Origin: Candidatus Bathyarchaeota archaeon
GTDB taxonomy: Archaea > Thermoproteota > Bathyarchaeia > Bathyarchaeales > Bathycorpusculaceae
Length of the DNA stretch: 64,000 bases
Reading direction: 5' to 3'
NCBI GenBank assembly: GCA_963782525.1
Contig: CAWAKC010000005.1
Location: forward strand, 1 to 64,000
In this document: in pieces, positions 18,508 through 23,471 of the stretch
Layout: each line of letters starts with the position of its first letter
How positions within the stretch are numbered: position 1 is the first letter of the stretch
Notes under the pieces: model-generated
Seen by the model: only the letters and a program-made list of their open reading frames with translations
Databases searched by the model: none
Told to the model about the DNA's origin: nothing
Translations under genes and position numbers: made by a program

Positions 18508-18867
18508 TTAAGACAAACCCTGACCGCTAAAGTTTAAAGCCAAGCCAACATTAATGATAGAAACCACCAAAAACAAAGCGAAAAAGCGATGTAGGGGCCG
18601 TCGGCTAGTTTGGTCCAGGCTTGTAGCCTCGGGCGCTATAGACCCCGGTTCAAATCCGGGCGGCCCCACCAAGCTACTTTTAAATTCACTATAATTAGCG
18701 TTATTTTGAATAGAAACAAGTGAATATCCGTTAACTAGCAGTTTTAGGTGGTTTTCAAACGTTTTACTTAAGTTGAAGCCTAATTCCTTCGACTTTAAAA
18801 CTAATTCTTTGTCCAGATATACTACAACATTACCTTGGTTGGCAATTGCATTCGCATCCAAGCGCAT
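18508..18867 (-). mobile_element. Putative N-terminal fragment (intN) of a tRNA-split SSV-type integrase with RHH/CcdA-like N-terminus
   Basis: ORF reads antisense through the tRNA-Pro 3' half (LVGPPGFEPGS); N-terminus VVVYLDKELV.KSKELGFNLSKTFE resembles an RHH fold. Confidence 0.5.
18594..18671 (+). tRNA. tRNA-Pro(CGG), encoded CCA
   Basis: GGGGCCG/CGGCCCC acceptor, GTAGC-CTCGGGC-GCTAT anticodon arm, CCCGG-TTCAAAT-CCGGG. Confidence 0.96.
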
Positions 18868-20083: not shown

Positions 20084-20929
20084 ATGAAAACATCCAAGAC
20101 CGCGACGTTAATCACCATATTGGCAATAATCGCCTTATCAGCATTCTGCTCAACAACCTACGCTATAACAGGAAACAGTCAACCTGACTCAACCCCGCAC
20201 ATCGGCGTCGTAGTGCTTTTCAACGATGCAGCCATGACACAGCCAATCAGCGTAAGCAGCGGCGTCCTCATTTCGCCAACCGTTGTATTAACCGCCGGCC
20301 ACAGCGTCATAGGCGGAGTAGTTGCATGCGTCTGCTTTGACAAAGGGCCAATCACCTACGCAATCGACGAAACAGGCAAAATTCATTGCAACACCAACCA
20401 ACCGATTTACTCCGGCGTTCCAATACCCTTCCCAACATATCTTGCAAGCATAGTAGCCGGGGCAAAAGACAGCAAACTCCTCCAAACAAGCGACGTTGGC
20501 ATAATCATTCTAAACACGCCCGTTCAAGAAGTACAGAGTTATCCCGCACTTCCTACCCCTGGATTAGCAGATACTTTACCTGTGAAAACTGCTTTGCAAG
20601 TGACTGGTTACGGAGTCCAAAATCCATTTAAAGTAAATGATCTCCCACCATTAGCCGGAAGTATTTCCCGCAACTCAGCCACTGTAAACTTGCTGTCAAC
20701 TCACTTTCAAGGAAGCGACAACTACCTCAAATGCTCATCGAATGCTGCCCAGGGCAAAGGCGGAGTTGCCTACGGCGACTCAGGCGGACCAGTGCTATAC
20801 AATGACAATGGACAAGCAACCGTTTTGGCTGTAAACGCATACGTTAACAACGGGAATTGTGCAGGCGTTACTTTCCACACGAGAATTGACAACCCAGAAA
20901 TCCTCGATTGGATCAAGGGTTACATCTAA
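20084..20929 (+). CDS. Secreted S1 (chymotrypsin/trypsin-fold) serine protease
   Basis: Signal peptide; catalytic triad motifs VLTAGH, SDVGII, GDSGGP. Confidence 0.92.
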   Translation: MKTSKTATLITILAIIALSAFCSTTYAITGNSQPDSTPHIGVVVLFNDAAMTQPISVSSGVLISPTVVLTAGHSVIGGVVACVCFDKGPITYAIDETGKIHCNTNQPIYSGVPIPFPTYLASIVAGAKDSKLLQTSDVGIIILNTPVQEVQSYPALPTPGLADTLPVKTALQVTGYGVQNPFKVNDLPPLAGSISRNSATVNLLSTHFQGSDNYLKCSSNAAQGKGGVAYGDSGGPVLYNDNGQATVLAVNAYVNNGNCAGVTFHTRIDNPEILDWIKGYI

Positions 20930-20969
20930 ATTAACATTGATAATTTGAAAAAAAATAGAGGTGAAACAA

Positions 20970-21026
20970 ATGAACCAAAAACGTGCAATAAAAGCTAAAG
21001 GAAACATCAATTGGGGCGGCTGGTAA
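20970..21026 (+). CDS. 18-aa Trp-terminal peptide MNQKRAIKAKGNINWGGW, putative prenylated-peptide precursor (not in ORF track)
   Basis: GAGGTGA RBS at 20958-20964, ATG at 20970, TAA at 21024-21026, followed by a stable hairpin. Confidence 0.75.
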   Translation: MNQKRAIKAKGNINWGGW

Positions 21027-21039
21027 AATAGATTCAAAC

Positions 21040-21065
21040 TGGTGCCTTCGTTGGCACCAATTTTT
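21040..21065 (+). terminator. Stem-loop plus T-tract after the peptide gene
   Basis: tggtgcc-ttcgtt-ggcacca then a-ttttt. Confidence 0.75.
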
Positions 21066-21129
21066 AATTTTTAATCTTAATTTTAGATTCTTAACTTACA
21101 AATACATTGGATTATGATTATTAATAGCT

Positions 21130-22131
21130 ATGAAAGAGACTTCGTTAACACAGAATGCAATGAGCATTATACAAAGCAGAGGGCAATTTGGACTATTACA
21201 CGCTTGCAAAAAAATAATGGCAAACCAGTATGACAACGGAACAGTCTGTGAAGCACTACAATATTATGCCCAAACAGTCCTTCCAAATGTTCTCCCGATT
21301 TTTCCAGCCTTAATTTATCTCTCCAGCAAAGCTAGTGGTGCTATCCCCAAAAACTTGCAACCAATAGCCGCTGCGATGTTGCTCATAACGTCATCAGGCG
21401 ACATCCACGACGACATAGTGGATAATTCAACACGAAAATTTTCAAGAAAAACGGTTGTTGGCAAATACGGCAAAGACATTGCCCTTTTGGCAGGCGATCT
21501 GCTGCTAATTCAAGGAATGTCAGCACTTCAATACGAATGCAACCTGTCGAATAAGCAAAAGAAAATACTTTTAGATTTAGTTGCTGCATCTATGGTTGAA
21601 ATTGTGAAGGCTGAAGCCCGCGAGGCATCGCTGTGGCAGAAGGTAGATGTGACGCCAGAAGAGTATTTTGAGGTAATTAAGCTAAAGGGCGGCGTTGCAG
21701 AGCTTCATTGCAAAATCGGCGGGATAATCGGCGGCGGAGACGAAGAAATCATCGACGATTTGGCGCGTTATGGTAGGGTAATAGGAATATTATCTACCTT
21801 AAAGGAAGAGTTTGTAGATATGTCAAGTTCTGTCGAGCTTGATCATAGAATTAAACGTGAATTGCCACCTTATCCGATGCTTTGTGCCCTGCAGAATAAA
21901 GCATCAAATTACGCGCTCGCATTCTCCAGAAGAGCAAAGTTTTCCTTGACGGATCTGCGGAGAGTTTCAGAGACGGTGCTGTGTTCCTTGGCGGTTGAAG
22001 AGTTAAACGCTGAGTTCAGGGAATTTGGAAGAAAAGAATTAGAGGATAACCAGCTGTTAAAGGGCAATGAGCGGGCGGGGGAGTTAGTGGTGTTGCTTGA
22101 AGCTTTAACAGAAGAATTGGCTATTGTTTAG
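21130..22131 (+). CDS. Divergent polyprenyl-synthase-fold (class I isoprenoid) enzyme, putative ComQ-like peptide prenyltransferase
   Basis: DIHDDIVD first Asp motif and ALLAGDLL retained; GKxxRP absent; second motif degenerate (LKEEFVD). Confidence 0.8.
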   Translation: MKETSLTQNAMSIIQSRGQFGLLHACKKIMANQYDNGTVCEALQYYAQTVLPNVLPIFPALIYLSSKASGAIPKNLQPIAAAMLLITSSGDIHDDIVDNSTRKFSRKTVVGKYGKDIALLAGDLLLIQGMSALQYECNLSNKQKKILLDLVAASMVEIVKAEAREASLWQKVDVTPEEYFEVIKLKGGVAELHCKIGGIIGGGDEEIIDDLARYGRVIGILSTLKEEFVDMSSSVELDHRIKRELPPYPMLCALQNKASNYALAFSRRAKFSLTDLRRVSETVLCSLAVEELNAEFREFGRKELEDNQLLKGNERAGELVVLLEALTEELAIV

Positions 22132-22223: not shown

Positions 22224-23471
22224 ATGCTAAACAACCCAATCACTAAAATAGCGTCACTCCCAAAGGAAGCGTTAGTAAGCACCTTTTTGGTGGCGAACGC
22301 TTTTGTCTGGTATCTCAGCGGATACAGCTTTCTGCAAAATGCCACAATCTCAAGATTCGGGAATACTTCTCTGTTGATTATTGCTACTGCCAATTTCGCA
22401 AGCCTTGTTTTATCCGCTTTTGCAGTTTCGTTAGTAACAAGCAAATTCAAGAGACGACCTGTCTTTCTCAAATACTGGATCCTCGCAGGCGCATTACTTT
22501 CGGTCTTATTTGCGATCATCAACTTAGCAGACTTTGTCGGCTTACTAGTTTTGGCAAGCCTAATAGGCGTTTACTTCGGCATAGGCATGCCAGTATGCAT
22601 GGGCTATTACGCTAAGTCCACAGCTCCACAAAACCGTGCCAAATTAAGCGGAATAATAATTCTGTTAATTGGCTTAGGTTATCCATTAATTTCGATAATC
22701 GGAAGGAACGAAACCATCCTTTTAGCCGCCTCTTTAGGTGTTTGGCAAATCCTTGGCTTGATTTCTGTATTATTTATTAAATCTGTCGAACCACTTGTGG
22801 AGCAAAAAGAACGCGTATCATACCGTTCAGTAATTTCAAACAAAACCTTTCTTCTTTACGCTGCTCCCTGGCTGATGTTTTCTCTAATCAACCAGTTAAC
22901 AATGGAGTTGAACACTCATTATTTTAGCAGCGGCACATTTCCAGCGGTGTTAGGGCAAAACTTCCTCCTAATCGAAAACATTTTGGCTGGTGCCTCCGCG
23001 ATAATCTGCGGGTTTTTAGCTGATAAGAAGGGTCGAAAGCGTTTGGCGCTGGTAGGTTTCGTTCTTCTAGGAGTTGGCTATGCATCTTTAGGGCTTTTCA
23101 GCGGCAACTATTTTGCAGTATGGTTCTACGTTTGCGTCGACGGCGTTGCCTGGGGTGCCTTCTCCATGCTGTTTTTAGTTACAATCTGGGGGGACATAGC
23201 GCAAGAAAAAAGTAGCGAAAAATACTATTTTCTTGGGGTACTGCCGTACTTACTCTCTAATTTGGCGGGCGTGTTAACAGGAACGTACGTTTCGGCTAAT
23301 GTTCAAGAACGTACGGTTTTCTCGTTTGCAAGCTTCTTCCTTTTCGTGGCAGTATTGCCGTTGGTTTATGCTCCAGAAACCCTGCCCAATAGAATACTGA
23401 AAAATCTTGACTTAAACAGCTATGTGAATAAGGCTTTGGAAAAAGTAAAGGAAAGTAATATAAAAACTTGA
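22224..23471 (+). CDS. MFS transporter
   Basis: About 12 TM helices, GFLADKKGRKR motif A, PETL C-terminal motif. Confidence 0.9.
   Translation: MLNNPITKIASLPKEALVSTFLVANAFVWYLSGYSFLQNATISRFGNTSLLIIATANFASLVLSAFAVSLVTSKFKRRPVFLKYWILAGALLSVLFAIINLADFVGLLVLASLIGVYFGIGMPVCMGYYAKSTAPQNRAKLSGIIILLIGLGYPLISIIGRNETILLAASLGVWQILGLISVLFIKSVEPLVEQKERVSYRSVISNKTFLLYAAPWLMFSLINQLTMELNTHYFSSGTFPAVLGQNFLLIENILAGASAIICGFLADKKGRKRLALVGFVLLGVGYASLGLFSGNYFAVWFYVCVDGVAWGAFSMLFLVTIWGDIAQEKSSEKYYFLGVLPYLLSNLAGVLTGTYVSANVQERTVFSFASFFLFVAVLPLVYAPETLPNRILKNLDLNSYVNKALEKVKESNIKT

Follow-up and report, generated by a model that had tools for sequence, protein, structure and literature searches.

A conserved micro-ORF beside a divergent isoprenyl-diphosphate-synthase-like gene in Bathyarchaeia, a candidate precursor of a tryptophan-prenylated peptide

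Introduction

The combination of a ribosomal peptide with a Trp prenyltransferase derived from an isoprenoid synthase is already known in bacteria. ComX peptides are about 55 aa long, their pherotypes vary strongly between strains, and ComQ clusters include a sensor kinase and a regulator of the ComP-ComA type. In its available passages, PMC13290415 places ComQ, PalQ and the ChrPC P domain together as 'trans-IDS-like' peptide prenyltransferases (IDS, isoprenyl diphosphate synthase) and states that all characterised ones target Trp; for PalQ, Trp is required at the extreme C-terminus, and GW and GGW tails are preferred. The precursor PalX is described in the available part of PMC10853753 as NHLP-type, with a leader that is cut between residues 72 and 73 and an 8-residue core ending in Trp. 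The same part reports that PalQ accepts the short core peptide alone, uses donors of C5 to C15 and yields a tricyclic product, and it proposes that the conserved Q197 holds the indole NH. StheQ from Sphaerobacter thermophilus prenylates a penultimate Trp and carries a ComQ-type pseudo-second motif, NDxxx, according to the accessible sections of its preprint (10.64898/2026.08.29.745113). A Gln by the second Asp-rich motif is tied to indole recognition in the available portions of the PalQ, StheQ and Ord1 papers. Here we describe an unannotated micro open reading frame (micro-ORF) of 18 codons that was found in a 64,000-nucleotide (nt) stretch from Candidatus Bathyarchaeota archaeon (assembly GCA_963782525.1, contig CAWAKC010000005.1, positions 1 to 64,000), referred to below as the window. 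It lies between the gene of an S1 protease upstream and the gene of a PF00348 enzyme downstream, and we consider it probable, though by no means assured, from its sequence context and by analogy with the bacterial systems, that it encodes the precursor of a C-terminally Trp-prenylated, exported peptide.

In sediments, peat and soils, few uncultured archaea are as abundant as Bathyarchaeia, and to our knowledge almost nothing is known about how they signal to or fight their neighbours. Radical S-adenosylmethionine (SAM)/SPASM-modified peptides of the streptide, triceptide and dynobactin types, which have tiny aromatic cores, are a further class of ribosomally synthesised and post-translationally modified peptides (RiPPs) that has to be considered for this locus.

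Conservation of the micro-ORF

The ORF translation of the micro-ORF is MNQKRAIKAKGNINWGGW (18 aa). An earlier note, made from the letters of the stretch, had divided this product into a basic leader and a Gly/Trp core; the peptide does have such a basic N-terminal part, which is conserved, and a C-terminal part of the Gly/Trp type. Loci with relatives of the downstream enzyme, a protein of 333 aa, were gathered from 61 related genomes and a species-level genome collection. From 132 loci collected, 16 were dropped for lack of either a tblastn match or an enzyme ORF that was complete, free of stops and at least 280 aa long, which left 116 with a complete enzyme ORF; removal of 15 duplicates gave 101 unique loci, and the final set of 97 was obtained after four loci from Dysgonomonas and Legionella (L049, L050, L052 and L053) had been recognised as canonical synthases by their GGKR-type motif. 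A candidate micro-ORF was defined as an ORF of 9-30 aa with at least three K/R in its first ten residues and a Trp in its last three.

Such a micro-ORF was present within 260 nt upstream of the enzyme gene and on the same strand in 26 of 94 loci. In 65 of 96 loci one lay just past the enzyme stop and ran towards the enzyme gene on the opposite strand. The other orientations were nearly empty (1/94 upstream on the opposite strand, 0/96 downstream on the same strand). After shuffling, these regions gave rates of 1.6-2.0%, and random 266-nt windows of the genome contained such an ORF by loose criteria in 144 of 6000 cases (2.4%). Altogether 73 of the 97 loci had at least one candidate micro-ORF, and relaxed criteria brought in a few more.

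The substitution pattern was determined in the five closest 18-codon orthologues. Over the five C-terminal codons (NWGGW), pairwise comparison gave 8 synonymous and 0 non-synonymous differences. Codons 11-13, directly before this tail, were hypervariable, with 5 synonymous and 21 non-synonymous differences, and the ten-residue basic head had 19 synonymous and 16 non-synonymous ones. The earlier note had asked for conservation of the ORF and its Trp in syntenic loci, and both are clearly conserved. As judged from these codons, selection acts on the micro-ORF at the level of the peptide, and the micro-ORF is almost certainly a real gene.

Additionally, 18 loci had both an upstream and a convergent micro-ORF around one enzyme gene. 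The two members of a pair shared their last 4-5 residues, with differing heads, in 13 of the 18 loci, compared to 16 of 306 pairs drawn between loci, and none of 10000 permutations reached the observed sum. In 14 pairs chosen for sharing at least three residues, 30 of the 51 identical residues other than W or M were written with different codons. Because of this use of different codons, the likeness of the tails is selected at the level of the protein and does not come from an inverted DNA repeat. Pairs with matched tails flank one enzyme gene in L005, L011, L025, L059, L062, L080-L082, L086, L089, L108, L114 and L129.

The peptide family comprised at least 78 distinct micro-ORFs of 10-27 aa. 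The last Trp was the terminal residue in 27 of the 78 and the penultimate one in 48, and it was directly preceded by Gly in 46. In 73 of the 78 the last K/R stood 3-9 residues from the C-terminus, and the boundary between a leader and a core would lie in this part of the peptides. The type of peptide tracked the enzyme tree: the window's clade had only the upstream peptide with the NWGGW tail, and neighbouring clades had FGGW tails, tails of G-W plus one residue with two peptides per locus, or P-I-R-led tails with two aromatic residues. Variable cores between loci, which the earlier note had expected if the peptides were pherotypes, were indeed found, with peptide types following the enzyme clade. 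The micro-ORF also stands beside a prenyltransferase-like enzyme, in agreement with the RiPP-like cluster proposed at the outset. The general features of RiPP clusters are present, namely a precursor gene beside a candidate modifying enzyme and a candidate exporter, a conserved recognition part and a variable core. The micro-ORF is very probably tied in function to the enzyme and the transporter, and its genomic linkage to both extends through one order of Bathyarchaeia.

The note had suggested a search for paralogous peptides in the same genome. A pattern scan of the genome found only the window peptide; a second copy was found on contig C4 by way of its enzyme.

Among 1.84 billion representative proteins, the family profile matched 562 clusters (50% identity) at E <= 1e-30. 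In a class-wide profile search 203 of 301 genomes had a match at E <= 1e-30, and the E values were bimodal. At E <= 1e-55 there were 91 of 301 genomes, namely the host genome, 23 from its genus, a further 38 from its family, a further 23 from its order and 6 from elsewhere in the class, so that 85 of the 91 strong-match genomes fell within the window's own order. The neighbours in the ESM Atlas were Bathyarchaeota clusters named only 'polyprenyl synthetase'. Loci L074, L106, L122, L087 and L108 came from metagenome-assembled genomes titled Limnocylindrales, Sulfotelmatobacter, Nanoarchaeia, Baldrarchaeota or Crenarchaeota, which could be either mis-binning of Bathyarchaeia contigs or real spread.

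The synthase-like enzyme

The enzyme matched PF00348 at E 8.5e-18 (64.9 bits against a cut-off of 27), and all of its 14 matches to NCBIfam synthase models were far below the cut-offs, the best being IdsA_Meth with 90.5 bits against 468. No ComQ-named match appeared in the same scan; ComQ is InterPro IPR033965, and whether NCBIfam holds a ComQ model is uncertain. The AlphaFold2 (AF2) model of the enzyme had a pLDDT of 91.9 and matched many trans-IDS structures at a TM score of about 0.8 in a Foldseek search.

In true synthases the Asp-rich motifs hold the allylic diphosphate through Mg2+, and the basic motifs GGKRxR, RRG and FQ and the GK loop bind the diphosphate of isopentenyl diphosphate (IPP). 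The 97 family proteins were compared over these columns with the canonical synthase of the host genome. The first Asp-rich motif, DDxxD, was invariant (97/97). The second was kept as [DE][ED]xxD, with the last Asp present in 97/97, D (51), E (38) or N (6) at its first position and E (82) or D (15) at its second; the window protein has EEFVD. GGKRxR was absent from the family proteins. RRG had become K-x, the first Arg being Lys in 96/97 and the second lost. FQ before the second motif was replaced mostly by S/M-T/I, and the GK..G.D..GK.T loop after it by a family-specific E...R...E..P.P segment.

Because the Asp-rich motifs are kept and the IPP motifs are lost, the enzyme presumably ionises a prenyl diphosphate and passes the prenyl cation to an acceptor other than IPP. 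By its sequence it is not an ordinary chain-elongating synthase. A member of a 90%-identity cluster of the enzyme bears the public name 'heptaprenyl diphosphate synthase', and this annotation is doubtful for the whole family because of the motif loss. PF00348 occurs three times in the host genome, in a canonical gene on contig C7 (E 1.4e-63) and in two divergent ones, that of the window and one on contig C4. Some longer or fused library matches (P0009, P0015, P0016, P0120 and P0145) were set aside as uninformative; Pfam gave only polyprenyl_synt for them, and P0145 is a canonical synthase fused to SQS_PSY.

Layout of the locus and transcription signals

The features of the locus are collected in Table 1. 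The ribosome-binding word GAGGTGA that the earlier note had seen 5 nt before the ATG was found as described, and so were the 18-aa product and the 7-bp GC-rich hairpin 13 nt past the stop with its T-run. The Shine-Dalgarno-like (SD-like) word stands equally far from the ATG in 10 of the 11 closest aligned loci; in L062 the micro-ORF sits further upstream. SD-like 4-mers were found before 510 of 1882 long ORFs of the genome compared to 1738 of 20000 random positions, and because of this enrichment SD-led translation is plausible in the organism. The motif of the 16S rRNA 3' end was not found in the assembly when it was looked for as a check on the anti-SD sequence. Antisense to the 3' end of the protease gene and the micro-ORF there is an 80-codon ORF with a TTG start (20795-21037, minus strand), which is probably due to chance.

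Table 1. Positions of the micro-ORF and of the features around it in the window
Feature	Position	Strand	Remarks
Secreted trypsin-fold (S1) serine protease gene, candidate processing protease	20084-20929	+	PF00089, E 1.6e-10
Shine-Dalgarno-like GAGGTGA	20958-20964	+	5-nt spacer, then ATG
18-codon micro-ORF, candidate precursor peptide	20970-21026	+	ATG 20970, TAA stop 21024-21026
Hairpin and two T5 runs, likely terminator of the micro-ORF transcript	21040-21072	+	
A/T-rich box TTACAAATAC	21095-21104	+	26-35 nt before enzyme ATG
Divergent trans-isoprenyl-diphosphate-synthase-like protein, 333 aa, candidate peptide prenyltransferase	21130-22131	+	PF00348
Major facilitator superfamily (MFS)-type membrane protein, 415 aa, candidate exporter	22224-23471	+	PF07690, E 5.7e-13

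The stem of the hairpin is TGGTGCC/GGCACCA (21040-21046 and 21053-21059) with a 6-nt loop, and it is followed by T5 runs at 21061-21065 and 21068-21072. Its folding energy was -13.6 kcal/mol (z = -3.26; 2 of 200 shuffles folded as well), and it was also listed by a terminator scan. A hairpin with z < -2 after the stop was found for 5 of the 21 upstream micro-ORFs with an SD-like motif, only in the window and its close relatives; L002, L035 and L038 have hairpins with different stem sequences, and L003 a weaker one. A run of T5 or longer within 45 nt past the stop followed 15 of 25 upstream micro-ORFs, compared to 13% of random windows. Such runs resemble the ordinary oligo-T terminator of archaea.

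The A/T-rich box before the enzyme gene was kept, with minor differences, in 10 of the 11 closest loci, as read from their alignment, and is possibly the enzyme gene's own promoter, perhaps the TATA box of a leaderless or short-leader mRNA. Boxes like TTACAAATAC stand at the matching place in L002-L005, L035, L036, L038, L059 and L060. We read the micro-ORF as a small separate transcription unit with an oligo-T terminator, which the hairpin may reinforce, followed by the enzyme's own promoter. The suggestion that the hairpin raises the ratio of precursor to enzyme is a reasonable one for its putative role. A sigma-70 promoter scan was set aside, the host being archaeal.

Metatranscriptome contigs of relatives, 90-99% identical to the window, covered the micro-ORF in 3 of the 4 libraries compared, which come from different studies. 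One contig of library X18 (20969-21119) covers it whole; those of X16 (21001-21151) and X17 (20118-21005) cover it in part, and a further piece of X17 starts at 21041. These are Logan contigs of relatives (shares 0.06-0.08) that carry no transcript ends, strand or level and whose uncovered parts have no meaning. The micro-ORF region is likely to be present in RNA libraries, which is weak evidence as DNA carry-over is possible.

Neighbouring genes and a second cluster

An MFS homologue was found in 90 of the 97 family loci, in 88 of the 90 downstream of the enzyme gene and on its strand. A homologue of the S1 protease was found in 23 of the 97, upstream on the same strand in 21 of the 23. The protease goes with the upstream type of Trp micro-ORF, being present in 20 of 26 such loci versus 3 of 71 others; the Fisher value overstates this association, the genomes being related. 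The translation of the window's protease gene has a hydrophobic signal-like segment at the N terminus and the motif GDSGGP.

The second, paralogous cluster of the host genome lies on contig C4 (C4:95356-99145; L133:2357-6146 in the locus set) and contains an IDS-like gene of 336 aa, an MFS gene of 442 aa and a TIGR04084 radical SAM/SPASM gene. Its micro-ORF (C4:98066-98107, plus strand) has 13 codons, is convergent and ends in two Trp. A remnant of such a convergent micro-ORF was looked for between the window's enzyme and MFS genes and none was found. The C4 cluster adjoins a divergently transcribed 960-aa ORF, judged from its sequence, without a family search, to be a leucyl-tRNA synthetase.

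The host assembly measures 2.87 Mb with 42.9% GC. Pfam scans of the window also gave EF-1alpha and an ERCC4 nuclease, both indicative of an archaeal host, and a 119-aa ORF at 18508-18867 (minus strand) had a weak, sub-threshold match to a CcdA antitoxin (19.7 bits against a cut-off of 22.4).

Discussion

In the mechanism that we propose, the micro-ORF would be made from its own short transcript, or from one begun in the protease gene, ending at the hairpin and oligo-T tract. The trans-IDS-like enzyme, with its allylic-diphosphate/Mg site kept and its IPP site lost, would take a prenyl group (C5 to C20) from a prenyl diphosphate and attach it to the Trp that closes the ...GGW tail. Export of the prenylated product would fall to the MFS protein, and trimming of the basic N-terminal part perhaps to the secreted S1 protease. 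The product would act outside the cell, where it may be a strain-specific signal or a cationic lipopeptide. Of these steps we infer the transfer of the prenyl group, its acceptance by Trp, the export and the proteolysis, and likewise the biological role of the product. The G-W at the last or penultimate position in the family matches the tails that known Trp prenyltransferases accept, and with the motif pattern of the enzyme this gives us moderate confidence that the micro-ORF peptide is a substrate for Trp prenylation.

Several observations weigh against this reading. One enzyme clade has cores without Trp (12 of the 15 loci examined), often with Phe or Tyr plus Pro. The micro-ORFs of this clade are convergent, have the same Lys-rich basic head and keep a P-[IV]-R motif. 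The Trp-less loci are L021, L041, L042, L044, L046, L047, L100, L109, L113, L118, L120 and L123. Because this clade lacks Trp in its cores, Trp is not the acceptor for the whole family, and it is mainly this fact, the chief one left unexplained, that keeps our confidence in Trp prenylation from rising further. At the position of the indole-linked Gln, just ahead of the second Asp-rich motif, the family most often has T (48 of the 97 proteins), I (21), L (7), A (7) or S (4), and Gln does not rank with these five. The fold search gives generic synthase matches and does not separate transferases from synthases, and in sequence the enzyme is nearer to the archaeal geranylgeranyl diphosphate (GGPP) synthase 1wy0 (E 1.9e-20) than to Ord1 9v4h (E 7.5e-12). 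By the strict definition 24 of the 97 loci have no micro-ORF, and the counts of loci overstate independent support as the genomes are related. Among the ten neighbouring window ORFs scanned with Pfam there was no receptor gene, and neither was there a kinase or a regulator.

A further point is the TIGR04084 radical SAM/SPASM gene (304 bits against a cut-off of 225). Of the 12 loci with sufficient flanking DNA, 6 have it after the transporter gene. Its protein has sub-threshold matches to the peptide maturase models PapB, YhhB, DynA and WgkB and could be a modifier of an aromatic residue. It follows the transporter in the Trp-less loci L041, L042, L044 and L046, the flanks of most other Trp-less loci being too short, and it also occurs in L036 together with an NWGGW-type peptide. 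No radical SAM gene was found near the window locus or near L035, its nearest relative with long flanks.

These findings bear on the explanation that the micro-ORF is a real precursor and the enzyme does not prenylate Trp. The modification could then come from another enzyme, such as the radical SAM/SPASM protein of the C4 cluster acting in trans, or the prenyl group could go to another atom, or the enzyme could make a separate isoprenoid. We consider this unlikely. The Trp-less cores of one clade, the missing indole-binding Gln and the radical SAM/SPASM gene with its likeness to peptide maturases, including its presence beside an NWGGW-type peptide, are what it would account for. However, Trp is strictly kept at the window locus and in L035, where no radical SAM gene is near, the IDS-like enzyme is the one gene that is always beside the micro-ORF, and the G-W tails are those expected of substrates of known Trp prenyltransferases.

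Bacterial small proteins that regulate transporters are known, and the micro-ORF could similarly encode a small protein that stays unmodified and is a partner of the enzyme or of the MFS protein. It might then be a regulator, a small subunit or a mimic of the transported ligand, but would not be a substrate. The data demonstrate linkage and selection, not modification, and would agree with such a protein. However, the peptides are basic and not membrane-like, their middle is hypervariable while the Trp tail is fixed, and two differently led copies with an identical tail at one locus are easier to reconcile with a substrate or product than with a structural partner, which makes the explanation improbable in our view.

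A regulatory leader peptide, acting by attenuation at Trp codons, or an upstream ORF that controls the enzyme gene by way of the hairpin, would fit the two Trp codons near the end of the micro-ORF, the hairpin and T-run before the next gene and the shared strand with the enzyme gene. The earlier note had named a Trp-sensing leader as its alternative. It is excluded for most of the family because the homologous micro-ORF is convergent with the enzyme gene in the majority of loci. The hairpin, moreover, is not conserved beyond close relatives, the fold showed no alternative anti-terminator pairing, the ten neighbours scanned include no gene of trp biosynthesis, and the conserved A/T box suggests that the enzyme gene has its own promoter. 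We hold this explanation to be very improbable. A meaningless ORF beside a real SD-like word could be expected now and then, as about 2% of random windows contain a comparable short ORF, but for this one the probability is negligible in view of its conservation in related loci and the synonymous pattern given above.

Returning to the prenylated precursor, a wider interpretation can be offered tentatively and at less than even confidence. The minimal peptides of 10-27 aa, a lineage-wide family in one order of Bathyarchaeia, would have their terminal Trp prenylated by an independently evolved, synthase-derived enzyme, would be exported by the MFS protein and, with their locus-matched hypervariable cores, would be pherotype signals, convergent with ComX/ComQ and not transferred from bacteria. 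Were this true, archaea would have their first described peptide quorum-sensing system and their first described prenylated RiPP class. If the prenylated precursor itself is real, an unannotated class of genes of 12-20 codons, invisible to gene callers, would encode lipidated secreted peptides in much of one order of Bathyarchaeia, and enzymes annotated as heptaprenyl or polyprenyl synthases would be peptide-tailoring enzymes. Trp-directed peptide prenylation would then have evolved more than once from primary isoprenoid synthases. The enzymes would be compact new biocatalysts with substrates short enough for synthesis, and the hypothesis could be tested in vitro without culturing the organism.

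Comparison with known systems

No trans-IDS-like peptide prenyltransferase, ComX-like peptide or micro-ORF of this kind was found described for archaea in our search, subscription papers and supplements lying outside its coverage. The homologue lists of PMC10853753 and the network data of PMC13290415, also outside the search, might include archaeal members. PMC12144867 has no occurrence of Bathyarchae, prenyl, radical SAM or tryptophan, and the accessible sections of the StheQ preprint (10.64898/2026.08.29.745113) have none of archaea. In the available parts of PMC13290415, two non-reference passages on archaea concern lipoproteins, and the passages covered of PMC12352652 contain no such archaeal system.

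The radical SAM/SPASM RiPPs of the streptide, triceptide and dynobactin types (as named in NCBIfam) resemble the family in their aromatic cores and in the SPASM maturase-like gene that half of the informative loci add. They differ in that no such gene is present at the window locus and that the defining partner of the micro-ORF is the IDS-like enzyme. The archaeal GGPP synthase of Pyrococcus horikoshii (1wy0) is the best sequence match of the window protein and its structural match of rank 3, with a TM of 0.82, the highest of the top ten, and both Asp-rich regions are recognisable in the window protein. Unlike a canonical GGPP synthase, however, the window protein is without GGKRxR, RRG, FQ and the GK loop. 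Ord1, a free-tryptophan farnesyltransferase (PDB 9V4G-J), has the same fold (Foldseek rank 27, TM 0.71-0.77) and is a detectable match in sequence, at the E value given above. It acts on the free amino acid, has a Gln-Asp relay, and is outscored by archaeal and plant synthases against the window protein.

Similarly to ComX/ComQ of Bacillus subtilis and to StheX/StheQ, the archaeal loci combine a short ORF with an adjoining trans-IDS-like gene, a Trp in the last three residues, a first Asp-rich motif that is kept as DDxxD, and a mature peptide part that varies strongly, in the bacterial systems between strains. The archaeal peptides of 10-27 aa are much shorter than StheX, which has 69 aa in the available text of the preprint (10.64898/2026.08.29.745113). 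ComQ and StheQ have the pseudo-second motif NDxxx, whereas the archaeal family has [DE][ED]xxD with N first in only 6 of 97 proteins. ComP-ComA partners are absent among the ten window neighbours, and the gene order differs, the archaeal peptide being upstream of or convergent with the enzyme gene.

With PalX/PalQ of Paenibacillus alvei the locus shares an enzyme of the isoprenoid-synthase fold and a precursor that ends in Trp, the window peptide even ending in the GGW that PalQ prefers. In contrast to PalX, the window precursor of 18 aa, like its family, has no room for an NHLP domain. Where the PalQ cluster includes a histidine kinase, the window locus has the MFS transporter and the S1 protease; the archaeal family also lacks the Gln by the second Asp-rich motif, and the host is an archaeon. 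The window enzyme was set apart from PalQ and ComQ by their published descriptions and not by a joint tree. New here are the domain of life, the clade to which the enzyme belongs, precursors of minimal size, the pairing of peptides with matched tails and the set of partner genes. By analogy, the best reading is that the system works like PalX/PalQ or ComX/ComQ but falls outside the PalQ and ComQ families, and the enzyme probably arose separately, from an archaeal synthase.

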